From: a bacterium
Lineage (GTDB): Bacteria > Patescibacteriota > Minisyncoccia > Phycocordibacterales > Zambryskibacteraceae
DNA length: 64,000 nucleotides
NCBI GenBank assembly: GCA_030649135.1
Contig: JAUSGI010000006.1
Coordinates: 32,001 to 96,000 of the forward strand
Direction: 5' to 3'
In this document: piece by piece, positions 8,991 through 28,498 of the stretch
How the letters are laid out: every line of letters begins with the position of its first letter
Numbering within the stretch: the stretch's first letter is position 1
Made by a program: the position numbers and the translations under genes
The notes under the pieces: model-generated
Told to the model about the DNA's origin: nothing
What the model saw: only the letters and a program-made list of their open reading frames with translations
Databases searched by the model: none

Positions 8991-9020
8991 ATTGTTGCTT
9001 GATCGTCTTGTAATCTTTTG

Positions 9021-9152: not shown

Positions 9153-9276
9153 CTATTTTCTTCACACTACCATTTTACCAGTTTTACAGAGTTAAGCTAA
9201 TGGCCTCAAATGTTCTCCTTCGAGCAGGGCAACTAAAGGTGGCAAAAGCGGTAGTGCACGGTATACTTCTTCTAAA

Positions 9277-10497: not shown

Positions 10498-10689
10498 AAT
10501 AGTCATTTTGGCTCTTACGTGCACAGGACCATCTGAAGCATTGTGTCCGGTACCTCTTTCTCCTAGTAGTTCTGTACTATCATGGCAGTTCTTCCTAATG
10601 CTCGTTCTGGCTCCCTGTGATCGTTTCTGGTGCGAGTTTATCTTCCGTTGAGAAACCCGACAAAGAATCAGGACCAGAGACAGATATGG

Positions 10690-13203: not shown

Positions 13204-13205
13204 AA

Positions 13206-15077
13206 TTATTTTTTAGCTTTGGCACGAAGCACTTTTGGTGTAATGACAATGCGTGATTCGTTGCCGTAAATATCCAAAAATACGAGCATGACATCACCTT
13301 TAATTTCTTTGGTGGGTAGCTCTATTTTCCACTTGTTATCTTTTATCGCGCTCGCGTAAAACGCTTTATCCAAATCAAATACCTTTCCGTTGTAATCGTA
13401 ATCTACCATCACCATTGAAAGCGCGTCGTGCTTGCTAATTTTATCCTCTCCGCGCAGTCGCGCCTTGCTCTCAAACTTCTTTATTTTAACAGACACGGCT
13501 TGTTTCTTTGCGGCAAGCTCAAGCTCAACTACCGGCGGCTGGATAAAATCAAAACCCACCGCCTCAACGGTTTCGTTGATAGCCATTTCGTCGTTTGGCT
13601 GAACGAGCGCGGAAAATTTACGTCGGTGCAGTTCGTTGATAAAAGAATACGGAATACGAAGCGCGTAATATCGCACACCGTCCATTTCGAGATAATCCTC
13701 TTGGAAAAGGAACGCGCCGCGCGGAGCAATAATAAAGCAACGATCTCCAACGGCTTTTCCAATGCTTGCGTGCAAGTCTGCTATTGTCTGCTGGCTAATC
13801 TGTCCTTCCTTAAAATGATTGAAAACATGAACGCTTGAACCTTGTCGCTTGCCATCCATTTGGAAGCCATGAATTTTGTGTGGCTCGTCTTTGCACTCAA
13901 AAAGCTGGAGCGCAAAAAATCGCCAATCTTCCCACGGCAAATTTCTCAAATTCTCAAAATCATACAAACCAGCGTTATAAAGTGTGAACGGCTTGGCGGC
14001 AAGCGACTCACCAGTATTGCTGATATTTTTGCGTAAAGTTAGCATTCGTTTTTGAATGGTATAAACTGCGAGCTTACTTACATCAATTGCAATCCAGCGT
14101 CGCTCTAACTTTTCGGCTGTCGCGGAAGTCGTTCCCGAACCCGCAAAAACATCCATAACAATATCACCTTTATTTGAGGAAGCTTCAATAATGCGCTTAA
14201 TCAATGCCTCTGGTTTCTGTGTCGGAAAATCAACTCGCTCTTTTGAATCCGCCTCTGTACCTAAAGGATAAATATCTTCCCAAACATCCCTACATACAGA
14301 ATTGTGATACCACTTTTGTTTGTCTTTATCGAAAAATTCAGGATATTTTTCACTAAAGTTATATTTCTTTTGCTGATACGATTTGTAGTATTGTGTGTTA
14401 AAAAGAAAATTACCGTTTTTTGCGTAGTAATAAATATTATCGTGTTTTCTGGCAAAGAAATTTTTACTTACACCACCAGTCCTATAACTCCAAATAATCT
14501 CATTTATAAAATTTTGTTCTCCAAAAATTTCATCCATTAAAACTTTTATGTAATGGCCTTTCCTATAATCAAGATGCACATAAATTCCACCATCATTTGC
14601 GAGTAACTCTTTTAAAAGAATAAGCCTCTTTCGCATAAATTCTAAAAATGCGCTGCCAGCAATTTTATCTTGATATGCTTTTTGATCTTGGCTTCCTTTG
14701 AAATCTCGCCGTGTTGAAAATGGTGGATCAATGTAAATAAGCCGAACGCCCGGCGTGCCGTCGGCGTTCACCAGCTTTCCATCTGCTTTCATTTGCAAAA
14801 GCGTCTTTATAGCCTGCAAATTGTCGCCAAAAATAAGTTTGTTGTGCCAATCAACCCCGTTCTGTCCAAAAGTGCTGACTTCTTGAAACGGCACAGCCAT
14901 TGTGTCGGCGAGAATTTGCTCCTCGGTTTCTTTGCCGTTGTAGACAAGTTCGTACTCGCGGCGTTCGGGCGGAAAAAACTCTCGCGCCCACTCTGCCGGA
15001 AGTTCCTCGCCGGTTTCGGTCAGCTTGAGTCCTCGTTTTAGCAACTCGTATATCTTTTCTTGACGACGTTTGTCCAT
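13206..15077 (-). CDS. mod: Type III R-M Mod subunit (beta-class N6-adenine/N4-cytosine DNA methyltransferase)
   Basis: 623 aa. Motif IV IYIDPPF precedes motif I VMDVFAGSGTTSATA (beta-class order, motif IV before motif I). mod-res operon arrangement. Confidence 0.85.
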   Translation of the reverse strand: MDKRRQEKIYELLKRGLKLTETGEELPAEWAREFFPPERREYELVYNGKETEEQILADTMAVPFQEVSTFGQNGVDWHNKLIFGDNLQAIKTLLQMKADGKLVNADGTPGVRLIYIDPPFSTRRDFKGSQDQKAYQDKIAGSAFLEFMRKRLILLKELLANDGGIYVHLDYRKGHYIKVLMDEIFGEQNFINEIIWSYRTGGVSKNFFARKHDNIYYYAKNGNFLFNTQYYKSYQQKKYNFSEKYPEFFDKDKQKWYHNSVCRDVWEDIYPLGTEADSKERVDFPTQKPEALIKRIIEASSNKGDIVMDVFAGSGTTSATAEKLERRWIAIDVSKLAVYTIQKRMLTLRKNISNTGESLAAKPFTLYNAGLYDFENLRNLPWEDWRFFALQLFECKDEPHKIHGFQMDGKRQGSSVHVFNHFKEGQISQQTIADLHASIGKAVGDRCFIIAPRGAFLFQEDYLEMDGVRYYALRIPYSFINELHRRKFSALVQPNDEMAINETVEAVGFDFIQPPVVELELAAKKQAVSVKIKKFESKARLRGEDKISKHDALSMVMVDYDYNGKVFDLDKAFYASAIKDNKWKIELPTKEIKGDVMLVFLDIYGNESRIVITPKVLRAKAKK

Positions 15078-15325
15078 TCAATTCATCATACCCCAAAACA
15101 TCTCTATTCGTCTTGCATTGCCAATATATGTATTATCTATCCTCATACTGTCATTGTGGCTTGCTGTGGTCCTCTGGGGCGCGAGTTTTGTGCTATTTTG
15201 TAGTTACGCCTTGTTGGCCCGAAATCTCACTATATTGCCCTAAAGCACACGTTCTAACTTCGTTCAACATGCGGAGCCAGTCAGAATTTGGCAAGGTTTT
15301 GGGAAAAGAAAAACTTTGAACTACA

Positions 15326-15682
15326 ATGGACGAAAAAGCAGAAAATAAAAATGATAAGCCGATTCTGTCGAAGACGAAAAAGGTTATCATATTGGCTCTT
15401 GCCATAACTTTTTTTGTATTCTCCATATTCAATGTATATTTAGAAATTCGCAGGCAATTTATGTGTAGTCAGATGGTACTTCTTAATGCACAAATCCCGC
15501 CCTCCGACATTGATAGTTACATCTTGAGAAAAGAGGCTTTTGAAAATGTTTGCCTTGAAAGAACTGGACTTGGAAGTTACTTTTGGGCATTCGCTAGTTT
15601 CTGGTTTCTCGGCTATGTGATAACTTTTTTCGGCAAACATCCAGAAAAAGTACAAGCTAAGGATAACGGCATTGCTTCTTGA
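15326..15682 (+). CDS. Hypothetical 2-TM membrane protein (118 aa)
   Basis: TM helices VIILALAITFFVFSIFNVYL and YFWAFASFWFLGYVITFF. Confidence 0.5.
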   Translation: MDEKAENKNDKPILSKTKKVIILALAITFFVFSIFNVYLEIRRQFMCSQMVLLNAQIPPSDIDSYILRKEAFENVCLERTGLGSYFWAFASFWFLGYVITFFGKHPEKVQAKDNGIAS

Positions 15683-15712
15683 CCTTTCATCTGATAAGCG
15701 TATCGTAAGTTT

Positions 15713-16159
15713 ATGAGAAAATATGTCTTTATTGCGCTTTTTACATATACATTCATCCCATTAGCAGTCAGTGCCCATCCTGGCAACACAGCTTCTGATG
15801 GATGCCACTATTGCAGGACAAATTGTGATAAATGGGGTGTCGCATGGAATGAAAGGCATTGTCATGCTTCTAAGGGTGTCCCCCAACCTACGGAACCTAT
15901 AAGAAGTATTCGGGGAGAGGTTAGAGGAACTGCGGTACCGGCACCTGAGTATCAGACCTATATACCTAAGGCTTCCATTCCTGTTAGTGAGCCAGCCAAA
16001 GCTTTAAAGGAGATTAAAACTCAGGTACAAAAGAAGACATCAGCACCAGTTAATAATCAAGTAGTGGGAACATCAACGTCGTCCAAAGATATTGTTCCAA
16101 TATCTCAACCGAAGCCACAACAGAAGAAAAGCTTTTGGGCTAGATTCTTTGGCAGGTAG
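15713..16159 (+). CDS. Hypothetical secreted Cys/His-rich protein (148 aa)
   Basis: Signal peptide MRKYVFIALFTYTFIPLAVSA. Segment HPGNTASDGCHYCRTNCDKWGVAWNERHCH. Confidence 0.5.
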   Translation: MRKYVFIALFTYTFIPLAVSAHPGNTASDGCHYCRTNCDKWGVAWNERHCHASKGVPQPTEPIRSIRGEVRGTAVPAPEYQTYIPKASIPVSEPAKALKEIKTQVQKKTSAPVNNQVVGTSTSSKDIVPISQPKPQQKKSFWARFFGR

Positions 16160-16307
16160 TATATTTATCTACTGCTTGGGTTGAAATTCATTTTTTAGCT
16201 TTCCTTAAACTTTCTCAGCTTCTTCCACTTTTCTCATAGCTCTAATTAACATTAACCTTTGAGCCATTTGTTGCATATATTCTCGGTTTAAAAGGAGCGG
16301 TATATGA

Positions 16308-16733
16308 ATGCTATACTTGGGGAGCCCGAATAAAATGTCTTACCCTAGAGGATATATAAATAAGGAATTAGAGAAAGAGATCGATAGGTATGGTGATGAA
16401 AGTCCAAATAGTCATTTGGGACCTTCCTACTACGCAAGAGCTTCACTTGGATTAACTGAATTAGAAAGAAGGAGCACAAAGAAAATAAATATGTTCTCTC
16501 TTTCTATAAGTACGCTTGCCTTAGTCTTTTCATTTTTAGCAGTTAAATACTCGGCAGAGCAAGCTGAATATTCAAGAATTCAAAGCGGTCCAGAACAAGT
16601 AAATCTGGCTCGTGCCATAAAACAGGCATTAGAATTTTGTAAGAACCAAAGAGAATGGGAACCTACAAGTCTGATGAATACCTCATCAGGAGAACAGATG
16701 ACGTGTTCAGAAGTGTTAAAATCATATAAATAA
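16308..16733 (+). CDS. Hypothetical protein with one TM helix (141 aa); true start may be the internal MSYPRG
   Basis: A 9-codon mini-ORF with an AAGGAG RBS overlaps the called start. Stop is immediately followed by the start of the next gene. Confidence 0.4.
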   Translation: MLYLGSPNKMSYPRGYINKELEKEIDRYGDESPNSHLGPSYYARASLGLTELERRSTKKINMFSLSISTLALVFSFLAVKYSAEQAEYSRIQSGPEQVNLARAIKQALEFCKNQREWEPTSLMNTSSGEQMTCSEVLKSYK

Positions 16734-17117
16734 ATGAAGACAATCTTAGTTGATGCTGTAGATTGTTTCGTTTCAGATACAGGAGAGATTTATAATGAAA
16801 TGCACGATCTTCTTGAGACCTACCCTAACAAGAAGATTATTCTTACTGGTGCAAATGATGAGCAATTTCAGAAATTCGGCTTAGACAAGATGCCTTATGA
16901 GGTATTTACCCTAAAGCATAGTCCTGAAAAAACAGACCCTTCCTATTATGTAAAGATGCTTGAGAACTTTGGATTAGGTAAGGAAGAGGTTATCTACTTT
17001 GAACACAACCCTGAAGCAGTTAAGAGCGCTCAATCTGCTGGAATAAAATCTTATTTCTTTGATTACGATAAGAAGGACTTGGCAAGCCTAAAAATATTCT
17101 TAGATAAAGACCTGTAG
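16734..17117 (+). CDS. Possible HAD-like hydrolase (127 aa)
   Basis: N-terminal KTILVDAVDCF and C-terminal FEHNPEAVKSAQSAGIKSYFFD resemble HAD motifs I and III/IV. Weak call. Confidence 0.4.
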   Translation: MKTILVDAVDCFVSDTGEIYNEMHDLLETYPNKKIILTGANDEQFQKFGLDKMPYEVFTLKHSPEKTDPSYYVKMLENFGLGKEEVIYFEHNPEAVKSAQSAGIKSYFFDYDKKDLASLKIFLDKDL

Positions 17118-17123
17118 ATAATA

Positions 17124-17426
17124 ATGGGATATCTAATTCTTATCTTTTTCTTTGGAATCATACCGTCTATATTGTTATTGTATTTCGCGAGAAATTATTT
17201 TAATTGGAAAGCATTCGGCATTACAGTCTTTATAGTATTTGTAGCGGCTTTTATCAGTGACTATATCGGAATTGAGAAAGAACTGTGGACCTATGGCATC
17301 AGTGGTACACAAACAATTGGTAAAACCGTCTTTGGCGTCCCAATAGAAGATTTAATATTCTTCCTCACAATTCCCCCATGGATTATTGGTAGCTACGAGT
17401 TATTGAAAGCTAAGTTTTCAAGATAG
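17124..17426 (+). CDS. Lycopene cyclase domain-containing small membrane protein
   Basis: 100 aa, 3 TM. Resembles CrtYcd-type lycopene cyclase domain proteins. Confidence 0.5.
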   Translation: MGYLILIFFFGIIPSILLLYFARNYFNWKAFGITVFIVFVAAFISDYIGIEKELWTYGISGTQTIGKTVFGVPIEDLIFFLTIPPWIIGSYELLKAKFSR

Positions 17427-17499
17427 ACAGGTTTAATAAATACCCTTGCATGGTAATCGAGACCCATGGTCGCTGATTAATTTGACTTAATTTTATAAT

Positions 17500-17901
17500 G
17501 TGTTATCGTCTACCCTAGAAAGGGGTGTCCGAATGCCTAAGTCAGCAGGTAGAGAAAAGAAGCTGGTAGTGTACGGGCAGACCTTGCAGAAAGCTCGACT
17601 CTCCTCAGGCATACTCAACCAAAAGCAAGCAGCCTCCCGCCTAACAGATGGTGGGCTACAGTGCTCTCAGCCTCTTATCGCTCAACACGAGACTGGCCGG
17701 ATAGTGGATCCTTCGCTAAATTTTTTGAAGGCCATTGCAGCTTTGTACGAAGTTGACTACCGAGACCTGGTCGCTGTACTCGTGATGGATAAGTACGGTG
17801 TCGATTTCACCTCTGGAGAGAAGCCTCGGAACTTGCTGATCCAGCTCGTGGAAAAAAATCTGGAGGAGTTGCAAAAGGAGCTTGCCAGGCTCAAGAAATG
17901 A
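17500..17901 (+). CDS. XRE-family HTH transcriptional regulator
   Basis: Segment LVVYGQTLQKARLSSGILNQKQAASRL is HTH_XRE-like. Probable start at the internal Met 17533 with AAAGGGG upstream. Confidence 0.65.
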   Translation: MLSSTLERGVRMPKSAGREKKLVVYGQTLQKARLSSGILNQKQAASRLTDGGLQCSQPLIAQHETGRIVDPSLNFLKAIAALYEVDYRDLVAVLVMDKYGVDFTSGEKPRNLLIQLVEKNLEELQKELARLKK

Positions 17902-18107
17902 GTGTGGATGGGAAAATAAAGAACCGCTTACCACAAAACTGGGGAGGCGGTTTTGTGTTTTATACGGAACTAAACCTCATAAGCTCTAAGCCTCGCACTA
18001 TATTAGGCAAATTAAGAGTCCTGAACTGCTCAACTAGAGAGTTCTGAACCCCGCCTGCCAGGCCCGGCGGGCAGGTCGTCCAATCATCGGAGCCATGATG
18101 GGAGCAC

Positions 18108-18800
18108 TTGGGATATAATGGGAGCATGATCGATCAGATTAAAAAATGGAACCAAAGTCATACTGAAATTCCTAAAGATAAAAGTGTTTCTCAATATGCT
18201 ATTGAAAGAGAGAAAGATTTTACAAGAAACTCATTTGTCTGTGAATTGGGAGGAGGAACGGGAGCTGATGCCATTTATTTTTTGCAACATGAGCATAAAG
18301 TGGCTTTAGTTGATATTTCAGACTATGCCTTAAAAATAGCTTTGGAAAAAGCAGAACAACTAAGTTTAAAGTTGGAAACTCACAGGGTAACCTTAGGAAA
18401 AGATGCAATACCGTTAGAAGATGAGAGTATAGATGTCGTTTATTCTAGACTCGCCCTGCACTATTTTGATTGGCAAACTACAGTCAACATTTTTAAAGAA
18501 ATTTATCGCATAATGAAAAACGGAGGAAGAGCTTACATTACGGTCAAATCCCCCGATGATTATGAAGAAATGAGTTTTCTAAGACAAACAGCGGTAGAAA
18601 AAGATAAAGGTATTTTTATGGATAAAGGCGATATCAAGAGTAGGTTTACAATAGAACAACTCGAAGCAATTTTAAGAGAAGCAGAAATACGCTCATTTGA
18701 GGTCAAGTCTTACTCTGAAAATTTCGGTACCAGGGTGGATAAAGTTAAATCTGGTAATACCCAGACGATTCTCAATGAGATACAAATTTCAAAAGTTTGA
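18108..18800 (+). CDS. Class I SAM-dependent methyltransferase
   Basis: Motif I VCELGGGTGADAIYF and post-I acidic LVDISD. GGAG 4 nt upstream of ATG. Confidence 0.7.
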   Translation: MGYNGSMIDQIKKWNQSHTEIPKDKSVSQYAIEREKDFTRNSFVCELGGGTGADAIYFLQHEHKVALVDISDYALKIALEKAEQLSLKLETHRVTLGKDAIPLEDESIDVVYSRLALHYFDWQTTVNIFKEIYRIMKNGGRAYITVKSPDDYEEMSFLRQTAVEKDKGIFMDKGDIKSRFTIEQLEAILREAEIRSFEVKSYSENFGTRVDKVKSGNTQTILNEIQISKV

Positions 18801-18954
18801 CTATAAAGAGAATTTTATGGTCGCGGAGCCAAGTATTGACTTTGGTATCCGATTGTGATTGAATGTTTGAAGAAAGCACGGGGGACCCGATTTCGTCGTG
18901 ATGTTTCTGCTTCAAAGTGTACGCATTTAGAGGCGCTAAGGAGGGAAACTGCTC

Positions 18955-19203
18955 GTGACGAACAATAGACCGAACGACATACACTGGGGTGCGTATCCGA
19001 AGGACGCTGTGCAGTGCGACGGCTGCGGTGGCCATGGATGTGACGTCTGCGGCAACAGGGGCTGGTTGCCTGCTGGCCACCCTCAAGGAAGGCGATGCCG
19101 ACGGGAAGGATGCAGGGAGCCGATTGCGCCGCCGCATTTCGGTGTCTACTGCACTCAAACATGCGCCTTCTTAGACAAGTCACGGACTCAGGACAGAATG
19201 TGA
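18955..19203 (+). CDS. Small Cys-rich zinc-ribbon-like protein (82 aa) in GC-rich island 1
   Basis: GTG start with AAGGAGGG 8 nt upstream. Cys pairs CDGCGGHGCDVCGNRGW..CRREGC..YCTQTC. About 60% GC. Followed by a strong terminator. Confidence 0.55.
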   Translation: MTNNRPNDIHWGAYPKDAVQCDGCGGHGCDVCGNRGWLPAGHPQGRRCRREGCREPIAPPHFGVYCTQTCAFLDKSRTQDRM

Positions 19204-19211
19204 CCGCCACC

Positions 19212-19267
19212 GCCGCGGGACGCGAGAAAAACCTCTCGTCCCGCGGCAGAGGGGCGGCTTTTCTTTT
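19212..19267 (+). terminator. Intrinsic terminator (GC stem about 13 bp plus UUUUCUUUUU)
   Basis: GCCGCGGGACGCGAG...CUCGUCCCGCGGC followed by a T-run at 19257-19267. Confidence 0.6.
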
Positions 19268-19509
19268 TATACATAGATTCGAACATCCTCAACCCAGCCA
19301 AGTGGTATGAACGACAAAAAAGCTATTGAAATATTAATGGGGATAGACCACAGGTATAAATTAAGCGACAAAGAAAAAGATGCTATTTCTTCAGCCATTG
19401 GCATGCTCAGCTAGTCTTCACTGACTCAAAGCAGACTAGAATCCAAGAAAAGAAAGCGAGACTAAGAATCACTCAGGTGGTGCCAAGCTATTGAACCTAT
19501 ACGTAACTA

Positions 19510-19538
19510 TTGACAGAATATATTATATATGCTAGACT
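19510..19538 (+). promoter_or_regulatory. Sigma70-like promoter TTGACA-17-TAGACT upstream of 19601..20068
   Basis: Perfect -35 TTGACA at 19510-19515, 17-nt AT-rich spacer, -10 TAGACT at 19533-19538. Confidence 0.45.
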
Positions 19539-19600
19539 AGATAAGTAGCCAAATTCCACGCTAATTTCAAGACCACTTGGGATAGCTAAGGAGAAGAGAG

Positions 19601-20068
19601 ATGGCACAGCTCTTTGTAGTTGATCAGAACGGGCACGTGCTCAATAACAACGTAGCCAGCATCATCAACCTCCGGGCGCTCGGTAAGAACATCGATGCCG
19701 AGAAGAACGGATGGGTGTACACGTGGCAGGAGGTATTCACCAGCGGGACGTACAACCTGCCGAAACCAATCTGCCCCGAGGTTCTCACTTTCGGCACGGC
19801 GCGGGCCTACCTCCACGCAAGCAATGGAATCGGAGGACTGCGGGTCACGGCCCGCATCGAGTGTACGGACCCTGCGGTGCTGGAGAAGGCAATCGAAATC
19901 GTGGTCAAGTACGTCGGTGGAAAGGTCAGCACGTTTGACCTCAACCAGCCGGCGCAGCCGAACTCCTTTGTCGATGGAGTTCGGAATGACCTCAAGCGTC
20001 TCTGGCACTGGGTTCGGTACAACGCCCTGCTCATGAGACGGCGCATCCTGCTCCGCCTCAGCATCTAA
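19601..20068 (+). CDS. Hypothetical protein (155 aa) in GC-rich island 1
   Basis: AAGGAG RBS 7 nt upstream. About 58% GC versus about 38-45% in flanking DNA. No recognised domain. Confidence 0.55.
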   Translation: MAQLFVVDQNGHVLNNNVASIINLRALGKNIDAEKNGWVYTWQEVFTSGTYNLPKPICPEVLTFGTARAYLHASNGIGGLRVTARIECTDPAVLEKAIEIVVKYVGGKVSTFDLNQPAQPNSFVDGVRNDLKRLWHWVRYNALLMRRRILLRLSI

Positions 20069-20124
20069 TCTGGAACAACAAGTAGTATCCGGCTCCACAA
20101 ACGATTGGCTCTATACAGCCCGCC

Positions 20125-20820
20125 GTGTGTGGAGCCTTTCGTTTTCATTTTTATACAAATTATTTTTCTACTTCTGATATACTTTCTGCCATGGAACATC
20201 TGACCAATCTGTTCAAGCTTATGGAGTTAACCAGGTCTCAACCACAGTATGGCTATGCTTTGGCTGGCATTCAACAAGACGAATTAAGTAACCTTGCGGA
20301 GCACCACTACTTAGTCACTTTTATAGCGTGGCAACTAGCTTCGCAGGTCAAGAAAGCCGGTGCCAAGATTGATATACGGAAAGTCTTGGAATTTGGACTC
20401 ATTCACGACCTTGGAGAATTATTTGGGGGCGACATATCGATGCCATATGCTCGCGCCAATCCAAAGGCAAGAGAATACGCCAAAGCATTCGAAGAAGAGA
20501 ATCAGAAATTCTTATCAAAATTTTTCGGCAATCAGTCCGAATACTTTAAGGAACTTGGGCATGAGATATTGGACGCAAAATCTGATGAATCTCTCATTGC
20601 CAAGATAGCCGATTATATCGAAGCAACTCACTATAAGCAGTACGTAAAAGTATTCTCCAAATTCGATACAGATTTAATAAAACCAAAACTTGCGTCAATG
20701 GTCGAGAAAATGACCGACCCCATCGCCAAGAAAGAGTTGGGTAAATTTATCAATGACTGGACCAGCGATATTACAAAGAAAGAAATTCCCGAAATTCTGT
20801 ATGAAAATACCGAGAAGTAG
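20125..20820 (+). CDS. HD-domain phosphohydrolase, YfbR-like 5'-deoxynucleotidase family
   Basis: Motifs AEHHYLVTFIAWQLA and LIHDLGELFGGDISMP. Probable start at Met 20191 (MEHLTNL), 8 nt after a TATACT -10, so possibly leaderless. Confidence 0.7.
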   Translation: MCGAFRFHFYTNYFSTSDILSAMEHLTNLFKLMELTRSQPQYGYALAGIQQDELSNLAEHHYLVTFIAWQLASQVKKAGAKIDIRKVLEFGLIHDLGELFGGDISMPYARANPKAREYAKAFEEENQKFLSKFFGNQSEYFKELGHEILDAKSDESLIAKIADYIEATHYKQYVKVFSKFDTDLIKPKLASMVEKMTDPIAKKELGKFINDWTSDITKKEIPEILYENTEK

Positions 20821-21007
20821 CAATAAACAATGTGGTTGAATCGAGGTAGAGATCCCAGCATTGCCGTGCGCAGCCCTTATGCTTACGGTTTTGTAAAAAG
20901 CATATTTTTTTTCATATAATTCGACCCCCCTAAATCGATGACGGTCAATCTGTTTATAAGTAGATTTACCCAAAAAAGATAGTGGTGTATACTGAAATTG
21001 AACAATT

Positions 21008-21742
21008 ATGATTTCGTCTATTAACTGGAGCGTAGAAAATTTCTTTGGTCTTTTCGCCCTTACCATGGGCTTACTTTGTAGTATCTACTTTTTCTATGAA
21101 TGGGTCAGGCATTACAGAAAACAAAATTACCTCCTCTTGTGGTCCATTAGCTTAGCGCTTTTTTATGTATTTCTGATTCCGTTCATTCAAATAAAATTTA
21201 GCGAGATAATTATTCTTACTGATTGGACAAATTTTTTCATTCCAACAGTTCCCTTTATATTTTTGGGCTGGGTACTTATCTATTGGACCATAACTCAAAT
21301 AAAATCGTCCGTAACGGATAGAAAATCAGCCAGACTTAAGGTATTTCTTTTGTTTTGGGTCCTTGCATCTTTTATTTTTTATTTTTTCAGATTTTCTTCA
21401 ACAGAAAACGGGAAGTTATTGTCAATTATCGGTCTTTTAATTTTCTTTATCACTATACATGTTTTCATTCTCTCAGCGTTATGGAAGTTATTTAAAACGG
21501 AACGTTGGCAAAAAAACATGCGGGTAAATGCTGGCATTATTTTTATAGCGAGCGCAATTATTATTTCTATCGTAAGATATCTGTTTCTTCTTAACAGCCT
21601 TATGAGACTTCCCGGAGATTTTTGGTTTTTGTCGATAGCATCGTTTGATTTCGTATTTATTTTAAGAAGTGTGGTTGTTATTCTATTAACTATTGGCTTT
21701 GTCCTGATACATAAGCACTATCTTCTCAAGTCTAGGATATAA
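21008..21742 (+). CDS. Hypothetical polytopic membrane protein (244 aa, ~7 TM)
   Basis: Multiple hydrophobic helices. AT-rich, no SD. Confidence 0.55.
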   Translation: MISSINWSVENFFGLFALTMGLLCSIYFFYEWVRHYRKQNYLLLWSISLALFYVFLIPFIQIKFSEIIILTDWTNFFIPTVPFIFLGWVLIYWTITQIKSSVTDRKSARLKVFLLFWVLASFIFYFFRFSSTENGKLLSIIGLLIFFITIHVFILSALWKLFKTERWQKNMRVNAGIIFIASAIIISIVRYLFLLNSLMRLPGDFWFLSIASFDFVFILRSVVVILLTIGFVLIHKHYLLKSRI

Positions 21743-21794
21743 ATATACTCCTTTTGTTTCTGTGTAATGGTTCTAACATCACTCACGGTGCGAA

Positions 21795-22022
21795 TTGGCT
21801 TTCAAACAACGTCTCAGGGAGAACTTGAGGGACAAATTAGATGGAGACGAGGGTATGTATGAGCGTGAAACTGTAGTAAAAGATTTCGATGCTACTCGCG
21901 AGATACTTCTTAAAATTGGACCGATTGAAAATCAGATTTATCGTCTGAAAGGACTGGACGACAGAAATTACACTAAACTTACCTTCTCCGAACAAATAAA
22001 GCGCGCAGAAAACAAATTTTAA
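21795..22022 (+). CDS. Hypothetical small protein (75 aa)
   Basis: Charged, helical-looking ORF. Confidence 0.35.
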   Translation: MAFKQRLRENLRDKLDGDEGMYERETVVKDFDATREILLKIGPIENQIYRLKGLDDRNYTKLTFSEQIKRAENKF

Positions 22023-22048
22023 TACAAAACAGTTGGCGGAATAGAAAA

Positions 22049-22076
22049 GGAAGTCGTAGAGTCACCTACGACTTCC
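22049..22076. terminator. Bidirectional hairpin GGAAGUCGUA-(8 nt loop)-UACGACUUCC flanked by A/T runs
   Basis: 10-bp perfect stem. Sits between convergent genes at the border of GC-rich island 2. Confidence 0.5.
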
Positions 22077-22098
22077 AAAAACAATGTCGGGCACATCA

Positions 22099-22284
22099 CT
22101 ACACTCTCGGGAGCCACCCGAGGAGGGATTGCAAACTCCATCCCATGTGAAAACTCACGAGCGAAATCGCTATCACGATGATTACGAAGACGATGGTCCA
22201 GTCATAACTGTAGCTAGGCTTAGGCGTCGCCTTCGGTCTCTCGACAATCCAGAGTAAGTTATGAAGGTCATCCCTCTTTCGCAT
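22099..22284 (-). CDS. Small 1-TM protein (~61 aa); track ORF 22099..22353 trimmed to the internal Met
   Basis: AGGAGA RBS 6 nt upstream of the ATG at 22284. TM helix WTIVFVIIVIAISLVSF. Confidence 0.3.
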   Translation of the reverse strand: MRKRDDLHNLLWIVERPKATPKPSYSYDWTIVFVIIVIAISLVSFHMGWSLQSLLGWLPRV

Positions 22285-22303
22285 TTGCTTTCTCCTACCG
22301 TGC

Positions 22304-22573
22304 CTAGCGCTTGGCACATCTGGTTGTGAGAACAATCGCAGTGCCATCCCCATTGATGACAGCGGAGGAAGTAACTTGCTTGCATCCGGCGGTGATGTAG
22401 AGAGTCATTTCTTGTTCATTCAGCACCCTCTTAAAGTCTCTGGGCGCGAGATTCTCCGAAGTGCTGACCTTCCGGCTGATGACTTGCACCTCCTCTAGAG
22501 GGGGAGCATTAGCGCCTACAAATGACCATGCAGACATCACCAGCAACACCGCCACTAGCACCTCTACCATCAC
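22304..22573 (-). CDS. Small secreted protein (89 aa) in GC-rich island 2
   Basis: Signal peptide MMVEVLVAVLLVMSAWSFVGANA. AAGGAGGG RBS immediately upstream. Confidence 0.5.
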   Translation of the reverse strand: MMVEVLVAVLLVMSAWSFVGANAPPLEEVQVISRKVSTSENLAPRDFKRVLNEQEMTLYITAGCKQVTSSAVINGDGTAIVLTTRCAKR

Positions 22574-22821
22574 GCCCTCCTTCGTTCTCTGCGTTTTGTT
22601 CGGTACGGAGAATTACGATTGAGAACGGCGCACCACGCAGCGCCGTCCTTTCCCGCTTCTACATTTCCTGCGAGAAACACATGACCCCCAACGAGAATGT
22701 CTTCCGAACCTACGTCATCGACGGGATGTTTATCACATCGCCTCGGACTCATCGTACGCGGATCGAAGTCATCGCCCAGACATACGGGGCACACTTCAGC
22801 AACCCCTGCCATGTCTACCAT
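22570..22821 (-). CDS. Small Cys-containing protein with basic tail (~83 aa); C-terminal part of track ORF 22570..23031
   Basis: ATG 1 nt after the stop of the upstream 88-aa gene (TGACATG). Segments CPVCLGDD..C..H and the tail YRTKRRERRRA. The longer 153-aa reading conflicts with the well-supported 88-aa gene. Confidence 0.3.
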   Translation of the reverse strand: MVDMAGVAEVCPVCLGDDFDPRTMSPRRCDKHPVDDVGSEDILVGGHVFLAGNVEAGKDGAAWCAVLNRNSPYRTKRRERRRA

Positions 22822-22822
22822 G

Positions 22823-23089
22823 TCAGACCTCCATTGTCTCGAGAAGTGTGCTTCTATCCAACTCCTGACGATTAGCACAACGGCAGACCTTCTCACTTCC
22901 CGGTACCTTAAACTGCAACCACAAAGTGCTGTTGTACCAAACCCTGATCTCGTACCAGACGTACCAGCAGTGATACGGGACTCCATCTTCAGTAAAATGG
23001 TACAGTTCATCTTCCATCTTGCACCATCCATTTCTTGTATCGAAGAGCTCTCCTACCTTCATTGTACCCCTCATACAACCATCTTTCAC
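22823..23089 (-). CDS. Hypothetical W/Y-rich small protein (88 aa) in GC-rich island 2
   Basis: GTG start with AAGGAGGG 9 nt upstream. Confidence 0.45.
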   Translation of the reverse strand: MKDGCMRGTMKVGELFDTRNGWCKMEDELYHFTEDGVPYHCWYVWYEIRVWYNSTLWLQFKVPGSEKVCRCANRQELDRSTLLETMEV

Positions 23090-23190
23090 TTTTGTTATCC
23101 CCTCCTTAGTACGCCCCCATTTTACGATATAATTATAGGCAGAAACGATCTTAGTTCTAAATAAAATCGTCGGAGAGAGGGAGGGTTACC

Positions 23191-23934
23191 ATGTACTATC
23201 AGCTTCTCTTGGTGTTCGGTGTCGCAATGCTCTTGTCACAAGTGGCCGTGCTCGCGACGACCATCCAACTGCATCGTGCCGCAACACATGCAACGCTTGG
23301 AGGGCTCGTCCTCGATCCGAAGGTTGCATGGGCATGCAATCTCATCCTGTGGATTACCACTGGTCAGAGGAGGAGGCAGTGGGTGGCCGTGCACCGCAAG
23401 CACCACGTCTTCACAGACAAGGTGGGTGACCCGCACAGCCCACGCGTGCTCGGCTTCTGGCATGTCCAACTCGGCAACGTCTTTTACTATGTGTGGGCGC
23501 TGAGGGAGAAAGATATCCTGGACAAGTACGCTCCCGATATCCAGGAAGACAAGTGGGACCGGTGGCTCTTCAACCACGGCAAGCTTGGTCTCCTGCTAGG
23601 AACGGTAGCACTCTGCTCGCTCATGGGCATGTGGTGGGGACTGCTCACGGCACTAATTCATGCCGTGACATACATCTTCGTCATCGCCTCCTCCATCAAC
23701 GGCCTGTGCCACACCTACGGCTACAGGAACTTCGATAACACAGCGACTAATCTGCGTCTCCTCGCGTGGATCACCGGAGGCGAAGGGTTGCACAACAACC
23801 ATCACGAATACCCAACTCGTGCGAAGTTCAGTTTCTTCCCGGGCGAGTGGGACCCAGGGTGGTCGATCATCAAGCTTTTGATCAGAGTCAACCTGGCCAC
23901 CATGAAGAAGACCCTTTGGACAGTCCCGAGGTAA
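23191..23934 (+). CDS. Acyl-CoA/acyl-lipid delta-9-type fatty acid desaturase
   Basis: Histidine boxes VHRKHHVFTDKVGDPHSP and GEGLHNNHHEYP, with TM segments. GAGGGAGGG RBS. About 60% GC. Confidence 0.8.
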   Translation: MYYQLLLVFGVAMLLSQVAVLATTIQLHRAATHATLGGLVLDPKVAWACNLILWITTGQRRRQWVAVHRKHHVFTDKVGDPHSPRVLGFWHVQLGNVFYYVWALREKDILDKYAPDIQEDKWDRWLFNHGKLGLLLGTVALCSLMGMWWGLLTALIHAVTYIFVIASSINGLCHTYGYRNFDNTATNLRLLAWITGGEGLHNNHHEYPTRAKFSFFPGEWDPGWSIIKLLIRVNLATMKKTLWTVPR

Positions 23935-23967
23935 GGATAACGGAAGGGCAAAACCTTCCTTCGACCC

Positions 23968-23999
23968 AACCCTGGGCGCATAGCGCCCAGGGTTGTTTT
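23968..23999 (+). terminator. Intrinsic terminator (12-bp stem AACCCUGGGCGC/GCGCCCAGGGUU plus GUUUU)
   Basis: Perfect hairpin directly after the desaturase stop. Confidence 0.55.
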
Positions 24000-24085
24000 C
24001 ATTCACCACCAAGAGTTGTGCACATTCTGTCAACAGGATATCCACCAACTTATTCTGATGACATTGTTGTGTTAGAATCACTCAC

Positions 24086-24631
24086 ATGAAGAAAGTGGTA
24101 GTCATCTTGGTTATCATCGGGGCGGTTGCACTTATATACACCATGCGCAATGGTTCTGCCACAACAAGTAACGTTCCGACAGTAAGCGATAAGGGTATCT
24201 TCCGTCCCGACCCGTCGGGCGCCACTTTCACCTTCGACGACGAATCGGTTACTCTGTCGGCAGGACGAAATGAAACAACCATTACCCCGGGAAGTGCGCT
24301 AGTAGAAGAAACAGCCTTGTTGGACCAATTTGCCTACGGGGATATCAATGCGGACGGCAAAGAGGACACCGTCCTACTTTTGGCCCGTTATGGTGGCGGT
24401 TCAGGAACATTTATATATTTGGCGGCCTTTGTTTCCGGGCCAGTCACTTACCGCGGGTCGGAGGCCACTTTTATCGGAGATCGAGTGTCTCCCCAATCTC
24501 TTTCTATAAATAAAGGCGTTGTGACCATACAATATTTAGACCGTAAAGCGGATGAATCTTTTGCTGCCGAGCCGACCGTGCCGGTATCAAAGCAATTTGT
24601 TTACAAAGCCGGAGGATTTGAAGAAAGATAG
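24086..24631 (+). CDS. Hypothetical membrane-anchored/secreted protein (181 aa)
   Basis: N-terminal hydrophobic helix VVVILVIIGAVALIY. Confidence 0.55.
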   Translation: MKKVVVILVIIGAVALIYTMRNGSATTSNVPTVSDKGIFRPDPSGATFTFDDESVTLSAGRNETTITPGSALVEETALLDQFAYGDINADGKEDTVLLLARYGGGSGTFIYLAAFVSGPVTYRGSEATFIGDRVSPQSLSINKGVVTIQYLDRKADESFAAEPTVPVSKQFVYKAGGFEER

Positions 24632-24654
24632 AAAATGTGTTTTAATAGCCACTT

Positions 24655-26442
24655 ATGGAAATAAGGAATATAGCTATTATCGCGCACGTCGACCACGGTA
24701 AAACCACTCTTACCGACGCTTTGATGCGAGAGACGGGAATGACGGGGGAGGGGGTAACGATGGACTCAAACGCTCTAGAACTGGAACGTGGTATTACCAT
24801 TTATGCCAAAAATACCTCCATTTTTTACAAAGATACGAAGATAAATATTGTCGATACTCCCGGCCACTCTGACTTCGGCTCGGAAGTGGAACGCGTCTTG
24901 CGCTCCATAGATACAGTCCTTCTGGTTGTAGACGCGCAGGAGGGACCGATGCCTCAAACTCGTTTCGTTCTGAAGAAGTCACTCGAGCTCGGTTTGAAAC
25001 CAATCGTAGTGATAAATAAAATTGATAAGCCGGCGGCCCGGCCGGAAGTGGCACATGAATTGGTGCTTGAACTCTTCCTGGAGCTGGGTGCCAACAATGA
25101 GCAGATTGAATTCCCCACCGTTTTCGCTATCGGTAGAGAAGGTGTTGCAAAGAAAAAGTTGACCGACGAATCAAAAGACCTAACCCCCCTACTCGATACT
25201 ATTCTCGAACACGTGCCGCCCGCCGAGCAGAAACTTGATGCACCTGCCCGTTTACAACCCTTTAACCTCGCTTACGATAATTTCCTCGGGCGTCTTGCTA
25301 TCGCACGTATTTACGAAGGCACGTTGAAAAACGGCCAAAAAGTTTTTGTGAAAAAGCCGGATGGAGAAACTTACGCGGGAAAGATAAGCAAACTCTACAC
25401 TTTCGAAGGCCTGAAAAGGAAAGAAGTTGCTGAAGCCGTGGCTGGAGATATTTGTATGCTCGCAGGACTGCCACAAATTTATATCGGTGACACTATCACG
25501 GCAAGCGAGGATACTCCGGCTCTGCCGGCTATTTCGGTCGATGAACCAACTATTTCTCTTAATCTTGTGGTAAACGATTCCCCTTTCGCCGGTCGTGTCG
25601 GTAAATTCGTCACCGGTCGCCAGATCCGTGAGCGCCTTGAACGCGAACTGGAAGTTAACGTTGGACTCAAGATAGATTTTTCCTCCAGTGAATTCATGAC
25701 CGTCTACGGTCGGGGCGAACTTCATCTTGCTATCCTTCTTGAGAATATGCGCCGCGAAGGATTCGAACTCCAAGTTTCGCAGCCGCATGTTTTGGAAAAA
25801 ACAGAAAACGGCAACAGACTTGAACCCTTCGAAGAGGTGCTGATAGATGTGCCGGAACAAATGTCGAGTGCTGTTATCTCCAAGCTAACGGAGCGACGCG
25901 CCAGTCTTATGGATATGAAGACGGAAAATGGACAGACTCGTATTACCTTTGAGGCGCCTACCCGCGGACTATTGGGGTATCGTAATCAATTTATTATTGA
26001 TACTAAAGGTTTGGGCATTCTTTCCTCTCGCTTTACCGCGTTTAAACCATATGCCGGAGAGATGAAACATGAGAAGGGTGGCTCAATGATATCTATGGAG
26101 AACGGCAAAGCGCTCGCTTTCTCGCTCGATAATCTACAAGACAGAGGGGTATTATATATCAAGCCAGCGGAGGAGGTATATGAAGGACAGGTTATCGGTA
26201 ATACCTCAAAGGGTGAAGACCTTTATGTTAATCCAACTAAAGGTAAACAGCTCACCAACATGCGCGCTTCTGGTTCTGACGAAGGTATTTATCTGACCCC
26301 CGCTTACAAACTTGATATAGAACGAGCCATGGAGATTATGGGTGACGATGAATATATAGAAATTACTCCGGATGATGTCCGTCTCCGAAAAATCCTTCTG
26401 ACACAACAGGCACGTTCAAAGGCTCAAAGAAAGACTGTATAA
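24655..26442 (+). CDS. typA: Translational GTPase TypA/BipA
   Basis: 595 aa. N-terminal motif [22 protein letters not shown] (G1) plus DTPGHSDF and NKIDKP. Length and architecture fit BipA. Confidence 0.9.
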
Positions 26443-26449
26443 TATCCCT

Positions 26450-27214
26450 ATGGCAAAACTTGATACGGGACCCTACAAAGGCGTCAGGGATTTTTATCCC
26501 GAAGATATGGCTATCGAGAACCATATCTTCAAAACTTGGCGAGAAGTCGTCGAGAAAGCAGGATACCAAGAATATAGCGCTTCTATCCTTGAACCTACCG
26601 AAATTTATACCGAGAAATCGGGCGTAGAGATAATCAATGAACAGACCTTCACTTTCACGGATAGAGGCGACCGGTCAGTTACTTTACGTCCAGAGATGAC
26701 CCCTACTCTTGCACGCATGATTGCCGCGCGTCGTAGAAATTTGAAATTTCCCCTACGTTGGTACTCGATTCCCAACCTCTTTCGTTACGAACGTCCCCAG
26801 CGCGGCAGAAAGCGCGAACATTGGCAATTAAATTGCGACCTCTTGGGTATCACCGGCATTGAGGCAGATATAGAAATTATCTCCCTTGCTTATAAAATTA
26901 TGAAAGAATTTGGAGCCAAGGATGAAAATTTTGAAATCAGAATCAATAATTCCAATACAGACGACTTGAAAGAAATCGGGCCAAACATAGTCTACGACCC
27001 TACTTTGGCCAGAGGACAAACTTACTACACAGGAATAGTCTTTGAAATCTTTGATACTAACAAAGAAAACGGGCGTTCTATAGCCGGTGGCGGTCGATAT
27101 GACAACCTCCTGGAAATATTTGAGGTAGATCCTATACCGGCAGTTGGTTTCGGTATGGGCGATATAACCATTAACGACTTCCTCGAGACACATAAGTTAG
27201 GTCCTTATGCGTAA
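26450..27214 (+). CDS. hisS: Histidyl-tRNA synthetase catalytic domain only (no anticodon-binding domain), HisRS/HisZ-like
   Basis: 254 aa. Class II motifs include motif 2 FRYERPQRGRKREHWQLNCDLLG and motif 3 GGGRYDNLL. ORF ends right after AVGFGMGD, where the anticodon-binding domain normally begins. Confidence 0.75.
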   Translation: MAKLDTGPYKGVRDFYPEDMAIENHIFKTWREVVEKAGYQEYSASILEPTEIYTEKSGVEIINEQTFTFTDRGDRSVTLRPEMTPTLARMIAARRRNLKFPLRWYSIPNLFRYERPQRGRKREHWQLNCDLLGITGIEADIEIISLAYKIMKEFGAKDENFEIRINNSNTDDLKEIGPNIVYDPTLARGQTYYTGIVFEIFDTNKENGRSIAGGGRYDNLLEIFEVDPIPAVGFGMGDITINDFLETHKLGPYA

Positions 27215-27782
27215 AATAGTTTTTGATATAGAAACAAAAAACTTCTTCCAGGAGGTCGGTAAAAATGACCCATCCCTCTTGGACCTCTCCTTGGTTGCTA
27301 TCTATGATTCCCTGACTGACTCGTATTCTTCGTACTTGGAAGAAGAGCTGGGAAAACTCTGGCCGATACTCGAGCGGGCCGACATGCTCATTGGTTTTAA
27401 TTCAGACCATTTCGACATTCCCCTACTTAATAAATACTACCCGGGAGATTTGACAAAAATAAAGAGTCTAGATATTTTAAAAGAAATCAAAGACTCTTAC
27501 GGACGCCGGATGCGCCTCGACCAGTTGGCGGAAGGAACACTTGGTAAAAATAAATCAGGCCACGGCGCAGATGCTACGGACTGGTGGAAGGCAGGCGATG
27601 TGGAAAGAGTCCGCGCCTATTGCCTAGATGACGTCAAACTCACTAAGGGACTCTACGACTACGCTCTTGCCAACAACAAACTTATATTCAAAGAAGGAGG
27701 TGCCCTCAATGAAATTAAACTGGACACTTCCGGATGGGAAAAAGCCAACGACCACAAACTCACTTTCTCTCTGCCATTTTGA
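27207..27782 (+). CDS. DEDDy-type 3'-5' exonuclease (DnaQ/RNase D-like fold)
   Basis: Exo I VFDIET, Exo II GFNSDHFDIPLL, Exo III YCLDDVKLTKGLY. Overlaps the hisS-like stop by 8 nt. Confidence 0.7.
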   Translation: MRKIVFDIETKNFFQEVGKNDPSLLDLSLVAIYDSLTDSYSSYLEEELGKLWPILERADMLIGFNSDHFDIPLLNKYYPGDLTKIKSLDILKEIKDSYGRRMRLDQLAEGTLGKNKSGHGADATDWWKAGDVERVRAYCLDDVKLTKGLYDYALANNKLIFKEGGALNEIKLDTSGWEKANDHKLTFSLPF

Positions 27783-27811
27783 ATGCTATAATATTTACTT
27801 AATAAAAAACG

Positions 27812-28498
27812 ATGGAATCAACACCACAAAATAAATACCTTATCCCTTTAGCTATCATAGCCGCGGGCGGTTTGGTCGCAGTCGCCATTTACTTCGGCGG
27901 TTCGACAAGCTCACCGCAAGCGGTCGTAAATAATACAGGCCCAGAAATTGACCTCCCTCCTGTCACAGAGAAGGACCACATCATCGGCAGCAGGAACGCC
28001 GACTTGGTGATAGTCGAGTATTCAGATACCGAATGTCCTTTTTGTAAAACCTTCCACAACACTATGAAAGAGGTGGTACAAACTTACGAGGGAAAAGTGG
28101 CCTGGGTTTACAGACATTTCCCAATCGTCCAATTACATTCCAAGGCGCCTAAAGAGGCGGAAGCCACAGAGTGCGCAGCAGAACTCGGAGGTAATCAGAT
28201 TTTTTGGGACTACATCGATAAACTTTTGGAAACTACCAAATCCAACGACTCACTTAACCCAAGCGAGTTGCCGAAAATAGCAACATCTGTAGGGCTTGAT
28301 GCGACTGCATTCACTACATGTCTCTCAAGCGGTAAATATACCGAATTGGTACAAAAGAGTGTGGAAGAAGCAATTAAGGCCGGCGCCCTGGGGACACCTT
28401 ACTCCATTATCGTCACCAAAGATGGTCAAAAAATAGTGATAAACGGAGCCGAACCGCTTAGAGACGTTAAGCTGAAAATTGACGCCCTGCTTAAGTAA
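27812..28498 (+). CDS. DsbA-like thiol:disulfide oxidoreductase, membrane-anchored
   Basis: CPFC active site (SDTECPFCKTFH). N-terminal TM helix. Confidence 0.75.
   Translation: MESTPQNKYLIPLAIIAAGGLVAVAIYFGGSTSSPQAVVNNTGPEIDLPPVTEKDHIIGSRNADLVIVEYSDTECPFCKTFHNTMKEVVQTYEGKVAWVYRHFPIVQLHSKAPKEAEATECAAELGGNQIFWDYIDKLLETTKSNDSLNPSELPKIATSVGLDATAFTTCLSSGKYTELVQKSVEEAIKAGALGTPYSIIVTKDGQKIVINGAEPLRDVKLKIDALLK

Follow-up and report, generated by a model that had tools for sequence, protein, structure and literature searches.

GC-rich, Shine-Dalgarno-led gene cassettes in a groundwater Parcubacteria genome are probably old accessory genes of the clade

Compositionally atypical genomic islands are interpreted through the amelioration model of Lawrence and Ochman, and such islands are usually more AT-rich than their host. 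Phage morons are autonomous transcription units in that each carries its own promoter and terminator; their base composition deviates as well. The Bacteroidota are a lineage poor in Shine-Dalgarno (SD) sequences in which few genes keep a strong SD site. Three GC-rich patches that resemble each of these systems in part, designated islands 1 (18850-20110), 2 (22030-24000) and 3 (42640-43230), were examined in a 64,000-nucleotide stretch of contig JAUSGI010000006.1 (positions 32,001 to 96,000; referred to as the window). Island 1 holds ORFs for proteins of 82 and 155 amino acids (aa) (p82 and p155), island 2 four small minus-strand open reading frames (ORFs; p61, p88a, p83, and p88b) and a membrane desaturase gene, and island 3 a single gene (p163) between prfB and rpsP. 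An earlier note, made from the sequence alone, had read the patches as very recent acquisitions from a high-GC donor. The comparisons presented here indicate that they are probably old, patchily distributed accessory cassettes of the Parcubacteria rather than recent imports from a high-GC host, and that their signature persists.

Like genomic islands, the cassettes have an atypical GC content at third codon positions (GC3) and atypical codon usage, are patchily present and occupy variable hot spots, but they are more GC-rich than the host and have no mobility genes or attachment (att) repeats at their borders. Simple amelioration does not predict a signature that outlasts silent-site saturation of p163 and a desaturase divergence of at least 40%. 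The cassettes share with phage morons the form of single genes or mini-operons of deviant GC set between a promoter and an intrinsic terminator; in contrast to morons, no prophage context has been demonstrated for them and no viral homologs of them were found. The SD-less core with strong SD sites in a small minority of genes recalls SD-poor lineages such as the Bacteroidota, the difference being that here SD presence tracks a GC3 of at least 0.65 and accessory status across a clade, for which no precedent was found in a literature search.

The host is a groundwater member of the Parcubacteria close to Candidatus Zambryskibacteria, to which its TypA is 88 to 89% identical; this TypA is 100% identical to an NCBI protein from a metagenome-assembled bacterium on a 107.5-kb contig, and all other named matches were to Parcubacteria, Minisyncoccia or Patescibacteria, bearing out the initial assignment to the Patescibacteria. 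The GC content of the whole window is 45.4%, and that of islands 1, 2 and 3 is 52.4, 52.7 and 55.2%, respectively. The patches had been put at 58 to 60% GC against 35 to 48% elsewhere; they are real, but values of 58 to 62% are reached only by 300-nucleotide (nt) peaks and not by patch averages. Most of the 300-nt windows with the highest GC fall inside the three patches, and core segments outside them at 48.2, 51.6, 58.2 and 63.4 kb reach 55 to 59%. Island coding sequences range from 47 to 59% GC, and their GC3 of 0.55 to 0.77 (0.48 for the doubtful p83) compares with a core value of about 0.46 (approximately 0.45 to 0.50). Codon usage is likewise not uniform, as the island genes use AAG for 92% of lysines versus 37% in core genes, and favor ATC (74% versus 32%), TAC (77% versus 42%) and CTC (49% versus 22%); their codon-usage distance to the core is 1.5 to 2.0, compared with 0.5 to 1.2 for core genes themselves. 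The bias sits mainly in two-fold boxes, with 26 to 55% of four-fold codons ending in A or T, a pattern unlike that of genes from a genome of 65 to 70% GC. Promoter and spacer DNA within the islands is AT-rich and host-like, and the spacer between islands 1 and 2 (20110-22030) has an unusually low GC content of 37%, making the whole neighborhood a compositional mosaic.

To score SD sites, the 20 nt upstream of each plausible start were paired with the 16S rRNA tail ACCUCCUUA using duplexfold (kcal/mol); no rRNA genes were found within the window. A strong SD was defined as -8 kcal/mol or lower, a threshold passed by 3.3% of random 20-mers. The scores were -12.5 for p82, -9.1 for p155, -12.2 for p88a, -10.0 for p83, -12.5 for p88b and -11.9 for the desaturase gene, such that strong sites precede six of the eight island genes versus three of 52 other window genes (Fisher p = 4e-5). 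A motif complementary to CCUCC, 4 to 9 nt upstream of the start, is likewise present in six of the eight. The claim that every island gene has a strong SD is therefore not quite true, as p61 (AGGAG, -7.3) falls short and p163 has only GAAAGGG (-4.4), while the accompanying claim that native genes do without SD holds. A near-consensus TATAAT ending 4 to 12 nt before the start, often TG-extended, was found at 11 of 58 window genes; these genes may have leaderless mRNAs, and many core genes appear leaderless. One of the three nonisland genes with a strong score, the core DUF2779 gene (28502-30043, minus strand), is preceded by a G-rich SD-like motif, AGGGGGTATTA, that is also found in the relative L086 (10866-12362), a hint that the ribosome can read SD sites. 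The island SD sites may be functional, in which case the ribosome would retain its anti-SD sequence.

As these features show (Table 1), each cassette has a sigma-70-type promoter and a GC-hairpin terminator of its own, between which lie a leader of 30 to 60 nt with an SD and a GC3-rich coding sequence. The terminators proposed to bound the islands were confirmed at five positions, as was the TTGACA-17-TAGACT promoter of p155. The cassette sites are the large variable region upstream of p181-typA and the prfB-rpsP spacer. Core genes start without SD, and many of them appear leaderless; cassette genes are leadered and SD led.

Table 1. Positions in the window of the cassette features, their flanking core genes and genes of the left accessory region
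Feature	Positions	Strand	Details
Toprim + AAA_25 primase-helicase	1399-3546		
S49 peptidase	5198-6094		
Schlafen/AlbA_2 protein	9277-10497		
Type III restriction; methylase	10690-13203; 13206-15077		
SD of p82	18938-18945	+	AAGGAGGG; 9 nt upstream of GTG start; -12.5 kcal/mol
p82	18955-19203	+	82-aa Cys-rich ORF, two CxxCxGxG motifs; uncertain gene call; GC 0.59, GC3 0.64
Terminator after p82	19207-19257	+	GC-rich hairpin, then T run; repeat I4
35-aa ORF	19307-19414	+	in AT-rich spacer, probably not a gene; GC 0.36, no SD
Promoter of p155	19510-19538	+	sigma-70-type TTGACA-17-TAGACT, TG-extended
SD of p155	19588-19593	+	AAGGAG; 7 nt upstream of ATG at 19601
p155	19601-20068	+	155 aa; small uncharacterized family of ~150 aa (HMMER homologs); GC3 0.77
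Terminator after p155	20091-20136	+	hairpin; repeat I3
Terminator of small-gene operon	22049-22076	-	intrinsic, 12-bp stem
p61	22099-22284	-	61-aa small membrane protein; SD AGGAG at 22292-22296; GC3 0.68
p88a	22304-22570	-	88 aa, N-terminal hydrophobic segment; SD AAGGAGGG at 22575-22582; NCBI MDO8589993.1
p83	22570-22821	-	83-aa ORF, doubtful; SD GGAGG; GC3 0.48
p88b	22823-23089	-	88 aa (83 aa from ATG 23074); SD AAGGAGGGG at 23099-23107
-10 box of desaturase	23128-23133	+	TATAAT; divergent minus-strand promoter spans 23132-23161
5' leader motif	23147-23158	+	GATCTTAGTTCT; conserved in window, L002, L006, L089
SD of desaturase	23172-23185	+	purine-rich GGAGAGAGGGAGGG; 5 nt upstream of ATG; -11.9 kcal/mol
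Desaturase	23191-23934	+	247-aa short membrane fatty-acid desaturase (Delta-9/DesA/SCD1-like); PF00487, His boxes; GC3 0.73
Terminator after desaturase	23967-23995	+	perfect 13-bp GC hairpin; repeat I13
p181; typA	24086-24631; 24655-26442	+	core backbone, right border of variable region; conserved in L002, L086, L087, L089
Terminator of p163 cassette	42680-42705	-	GC hairpin, then conserved rpsP promoter
p163	42731-43222	-	163 aa, between prfB and rpsP; weak SD GAAAGGG; GC3 0.65
-10 box of p163 cassette	43265-43270	-	TG-extended TGTGTATAAT, directly after prfB stop; L173 equivalent TATATATAAT
Core genes			GC3 ~0.45-0.50

The age of the island 2 cassettes was judged from metagenome contigs of related bacteria, referred to here by locus handles. 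Among these relatives the backbone is kept: MreB, def/fmt, HPF and VanY form one flank, and p181, typA and the genes from hisS-like to rpoC form the other. The content of the VanY-p181 interval differs in every genome compared; p181 and typA themselves have a normal GC3 (0.46 to 0.48) and no SD. The relative L002 (TypA 93% identical) carries the same order of three small minus-strand genes, desaturase, p181 and typA, with 80% nucleotide identity to the window over 3.5 kb. The two desaturases share 78% aa identity, with a nonsynonymous divergence (dN) of 0.13, a synonymous divergence (dS) of 0.63 and a dN/dS of 0.21, so the gene is kept under purifying selection; its GC3 is 0.74 to 0.75 in both genomes and the SD is present in both. 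A block that is shared and syntenic at this distance argues against a very recent transfer of island 2. The desaturase is missing from L086 (TypA 92%) and L087 (90%), and in L089/L090 (89%, the named Zambryskibacteria cluster) it lies elsewhere in the same variable region and is 56% identical. In the distant Parcubacteria contig L006 the desaturase again adjoins a p181 homolog. All five Patescibacteria copies have a GC3 of 0.67 to 0.75 within flanks of 45 to 48% GC, and all five keep the upstream SD.

The 70 nt upstream of the desaturase gene are homologous in the window, L002, L006 and L089, although the proteins are only 56 to 62% identical, and the shared order is a TA(T/C)AAT box, (G)ATCTT(A/C)GTT(C/T) at -31 to -41 and a purine-rich SD. 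Upstream of 70-odd Acidobacteriota and Actinomycetota genes the leader motif was absent, save for one match in L051 that lies off position at -68, and the Doudnabacteria copy L017 lacks it too. Promoter, leader and coding sequence thus appear to have traveled together inside the Parcubacteria, which again does not fit a very recent arrival. The leader motif (approximately 9960-9971 in L002) may act as an operator or as a weak element pairing with the SD; a role of the leader as an SD-sequestering hairpin was rejected, as the RNAalifold consensus of four sequences (-0.99 kcal/mol) is too weak.

Most of the desaturases recovered from GTDB species genomes were those of Acidobacteriota (Vicinamibacterales, Luteitalea; 51 to 62%), with Actinomycetota at 45 to 50% and two Patescibacteria, L006 and L017. 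The closest desaturases outside the Parcubacteria are those of Acidobacteriota (Vicinamibacterales) at 55 to 63%, so the Actinobacteria-like donor or host that had been expected is not borne out. In a neighbor-joining tree, the window and L002 form a long branch that groups with L006 and with one short Chloroflexi-binned contig; this group falls outside the Acidobacteriota clade, in which the Doudnabacteria copy L017 is nested. L089, which was not in the tree, is about equidistant, with pairwise identities of 56 to 59% to the window, L002 and Acidobacteriota-type copies. From these patterns, an old Acidobacteriota-like high-GC source of the desaturase lineage is plausible. Many Actinomycetota desaturase genes (L056-L084) have a conserved palindrome 20 to 60 nt upstream, e.g., CCTACCGACCGGTAGG or TACCTACCGGTAGGTA, that resembles a repressor operator and is absent from Acidobacteriota and Parcubacteria copies.

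Island 3 was compared across 80 metagenome loci fetched with prfB as bait. The description of p163 as wedged between prfB and rpsP is upheld. The site is empty in seven of the closest relatives, with prfB identities of 78 to 86%, where rpsP follows prfB after 16 to 51 nt. The closest relative of all, L173 (prfB 90%), carries a 44%-identical p163 homolog at the same site in a cassette built like that of the window, in which a TATAAT box just past the prfB stop is followed by caAGAAAGG, a coding sequence rich in GC, a GC hairpin and the conserved promoter of rpsP. Between the window and L173, dS is 2.4 for p163, 1.4 for prfB and 2.1 for S16. Four-fold-site identity in p163 is 0.36 (random expectation, 0.28), and agreement in GC-versus-AT class at these sites is 0.55 (expected, 0.54); the silent sites are saturated. 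Despite this, GC3 is 0.65 in the window copy and 0.66 in L173, versus 0.45 to 0.49 in flanking genes. A third family member, on L085 (a 47% GC, SD-poor contig), has a GC3 of 0.69, and no member was found in a high-GC context. The cassette predates the split from L173, contrary to a very recent transfer of island 3. The p163 structure model (three sequences) had a mean confidence (pLDDT) of 41 and was unusable. The same spacer is a recurrent insertion site: L169 (3283-4951, corresponding to window 42638-43277) carries an AT-rich insert without p163 that encodes a PIN-like 145-aa and a SWIM-zinc-finger-like 239-aa protein.

Island 1 (p82 plus p155) was seen in no relative examined. A word-indexed search with p82, p155 and p163 concatenated returned only two p163 relatives and missed the self matches; by this search p155 is an ORFan, but an exhaustive HMMER search gave 20 distant homologs of 140 to 218 aa, all but one of 140 to 171 aa, with the family motifs LSW, VRIES and NSFVxGVxNDLRRL. 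The two readable contexts, L091 and L092, show TTGAC(A/G)-17/18-TA(T/C)A(A/C)T, a leader, an SD and a GC3 of 0.72 amid AT-rich or mid-GC DNA. The AlphaFold model of p155 is confident (pLDDT 85) and gave no convincing structural match. The call of p82 is uncertain: although two CxxCxGxG motifs, an SD and a terminator are present, there is no homolog or gene call in the protein collection searched, its codon-position GC is not clearly coding-like, and no match was found in Pfam, PHROG or NCBIfam. The proposed 35-aa ORF has neither an SD nor a homolog in any fetched locus and is probably not a gene. The low-GC patch at 20900-22030 (32 to 37%) encodes a multi-pass membrane protein of 244 aa (21008-21742), for which only the Logan assembly described below has a gene call, and a 75-aa ORF, neither with a homolog in any fetched locus.

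The link between GC3 and SD was extended to 468 ORFs of 90 aa or more in 461 kb of sequence from 53 related contigs. Below a GC3 of 0.65, 2 to 10% of genes have a strong SD, approximately the same as internal control positions (5 to 14%), whereas at 0.65 or above five of eight genes do, versus none of eight controls; comparing GC3 of at least 0.60 with less than 0.55 gave a Fisher p of 5e-4 for SD. In L002, L086, L087 and L089, most strong SD sites belong to raised-GC3 genes, including those for an HD-like protein, DUF2103 and several small proteins. Elsewhere, L166 (6265-8394) carries, as judged by eye, a dihydroorotase-like gene with a strong SD and a dihydroorotate-dehydrogenase-like gene with a weak one (GC3 0.66 and 0.64), and the GC3-rich, SD-led class may carry pyrimidine-synthesis capacity in other Parcubacteria.

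Taken together, the desaturase occurs in L002 and L089 and not in L086 or L087, and p163 in L173 and not in seven others, so the sister-genome comparison proposed earlier yields a mixed answer in which patchiness itself implies horizontal mobility of the cassettes over evolutionary time. Across protein differences of 40 to 56% within the clade, the desaturase and p163 cassettes have kept a GC3 of about 0.65 to 0.75 and a purine-rich ribosome-binding site. Gene transfer in Patescibacteria has been reported as mostly intra-phylum and not recent (PMC12455944), in agreement with old cassettes circulating among Parcubacteria. The persistence of the signature may reflect translation or mRNA selection, GC-biased gene conversion or repeated allele replacement from a Parcubacteria mobile pool; slow or parallel amelioration can fit the desaturase but fits the saturated p163 pair poorly.

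Several points weigh against old cassettes with a persistent signature. Island 1, found in no relative, could be a recent gain. Silent-site identity between the window and L002 is higher for the desaturase (0.64) than for typA (0.47), which could mean transfer after the lineages split, and incomplete amelioration that ran in parallel from a starting GC3 near 0.9 would also fit the dS of 0.63, as it would leave about 0.74. The persistence of GC3 rests on few short genes, p163 having only 33 four-fold sites, and four-fold-site GC in prfB (0.56 to 0.64) is not far below that of p163. The start codons of the clade-wide test were picked heuristically and its top GC3 bin holds eight genes, and the desaturase tree is without support values. 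Lastly, the anti-SD CCTCCT is kept in only 48% of Parcubacteria 16S sequences (PMC9297842); with about half of Parcubacteria reported to be without it and no 16S gene in the window, the SD sites might be nonfunctional relics.

A stronger form of the explanation holds that two stable gene classes exist, an SD-less, largely leaderless core (GC3 of about 0.45) and leadered, SD-dependent, GC3-rich (0.65 to 0.75) circulating cassettes, with the signature actively maintained and the anti-SD serving a minority regulon only. This is offered tentatively and is considerably less probable than old accessory cassettes as such; maintenance may then come from translation or mRNA selection, or from GC-biased gene conversion in recombining cassettes, rather than being a decaying foreign signature.

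Among the rivals, the one that survives best, though it is unlikely, is that the cassettes are moron-type cargo of a Parcubacteria-specific mobile-element or phage pool with higher GC and SD use, the left 24 kb of the window being one integrated element. The promoter and terminator of each cassette are as in phage morons, and on L092 (1828-3402) and L093 the p155-family gene immediately follows the gene for an IS30-like transposase of 328 aa (HTH_38), whose GC3 of 0.61 contrasts with 0.44 in a neighboring cobalamin adenosyltransferase gene. The left part of the window, with its Toprim-AAA_25 primase-helicase, type III restriction-modification system, Schlafen/AlbA_2 protein and XRE regulator, and the repeated use of the prfB-rpsP spacer (the PIN and SWIM-type genes of L169) would also suit mobile cargo. 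Against this, no integrase, att repeats or target-site duplications occur at the cassette borders: a search for flanking direct and inverted repeats gave nothing beyond short matches of the kind expected by chance, tRNA genes are absent from the vicinity of the islands and no integrase was present among the scanned proteins. A phage or plasmid origin was not supported in any of six comparisons, as PHROG matched nothing except the XRE regulator, IMG/VR held no p155 relative and only viral desaturases of 40% identity or less, annotated phages (INPHARED) and plasmids gave no match, and BFVD gave no fold match.

Far less probable is the original proposal, a very recent acquisition from a high-GC, SD-using donor, possibly the actinobacterial host of an episymbiont, with signals not yet ameliorated. 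The atypical GC3 and codon usage, an SD frequency that is high in the islands and almost nil elsewhere, and the lack of island 1 in relatives are all as such a transfer would leave them, and members of the desaturase family, also GGAGG led, are abundant among high-GC bacteria of soil and groundwater. Yet the best desaturase outside the Parcubacteria is only 63% identical and belongs to an Acidobacteriota, with Actinomycetota lower still, and in place of near-identity to a donor or low divergence among copies, the clade copies are 44 to 78% identical with dS from 0.63 to saturated. The synteny with L002, the saturation of p163 against L173 and a promoter and leader that four Parcubacteria copies share and candidate donors lack are equally at odds with it, as is a codon bias confined largely to two-fold boxes. 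No p155 or p163 homolog was seen in a high-GC context, and no donor can be named for p155, p163 or p82, the p155 and p163 homologs having been found only as GC-rich outliers in contigs of approximately 47 to 53% GC. For islands 2 and 3, recent transfer is largely refuted.

An assembly or binning artefact, in which high-GC community DNA was joined chimerically into a Parcubacteria contig, can be dismissed as extremely improbable despite the origin of the sequence as a metagenome-assembled genome (MAG) from a complex community and its abrupt GC changes, because a 12,784-bp contig of the independent Logan assembly of SRR13727527 matches window 15249-28032, spanning islands 1 and 2, with 0 mismatches, the desaturase/p181/typA junction recurs in the ENA contig L002 and the prfB/p163/rpsP junctions in the JGI contig L173, and promoter and spacer DNA inside the islands is host-like.

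The desaturase identification stands, with a PF00487 score of 53.5 bits (cut-off, 29.7; E = 3.8e-14) and three His boxes (H28/H33, H68/H71/H72 and H201/H204/H205) invariant among 18 aligned family members. These have the HX4H, HX2HH and HX2HH forms seen in mammalian SCD1 (PDB 4ymk/4zyo) and the Pseudomonas DesA family (NF049918), both of which align, SCD1 4ymk over residues 60-211 with an E of 2.6e-10. The DesA model scored 174 bits against a cut-off of 400 and was covered at positions 11-242 of 385; the window protein, at only 247 aa, is without roughly the last 140 positions and is a short DesA relative rather than an equivalog. Its subfamily of short (~245-aa) proteins occurs mainly in Acidobacteriota and Actinomycetota MAGs, and the "delta-9" label derives only from JGI annotations of homologs. 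Judging by its motifs, it would be an O2-dependent di-iron enzyme that desaturates acyl chains in cis, probably at the Delta-9 position. Bacteria of the candidate phyla radiation are generally without fatty-acid synthesis, so its substrate would be scavenged lipid.

Four minus-strand small genes had been proposed beside the desaturase, and three of them are conserved. Identities to L002 are 54% for p61 (to a 53-aa gene), 53% for p88a (9389-9658) and 46 to 47% for p88b (9660-9881), indicating real, fast-evolving genes (46 to 55% overall). The fourth, p83, is left doubtful because of its low GC3 and because its 250-nt segment is missing from L002, whose two flanking genes abut. Longer readings of 84 and 153 aa were dropped in favor of the 61-aa and 88-aa genes, for which L002 has counterparts and an SD is present.

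To the left of the islands, window 1399-15077 resembles a large accessory or mobile region (Table 1), and none of the backbone genes VanY, HPF, def/fmt and MreB was seen there. Two matches to the Rfam LOOT RNA (RF03000), at 7675-7794 and 9046-9153 on the minus strand (61.3 and 64.7 bits; gathering score, 46.4), flank a very AT-rich 256-aa gene (7908-8678, 31% GC) and a 133-aa ORF. To the right, a 121-aa protein (40571-40936, minus strand) matches PF05635, the family named "23S rRNA intervening sequence protein", with an E of 1.8e-39 and is less strongly bAvd-like; its gene adjoins a transglutaminase-like gene, and PF05635-family proteins sometimes accompany diversity-generating retroelements. 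Two tRNA-Thr genes lie at 48234-48471, and two tRNA-Met (CAT) genes at 49908-50116 face away from each other, 65 nt apart, beside tRNA-Asp.

Guesses at the hosts of uncultivated Patescibacteria commonly rest on composition-based calls of recent horizontal transfer or host-derived genes, and such calls mislead here, as the cassettes point to no host. The desaturase would imply that some Parcubacteria can remodel scavenged lipids in an O2-dependent manner. The link between GC3 and SD across the clade provides a handle on how Parcubacteria initiate translation and on whether two modes coexist.

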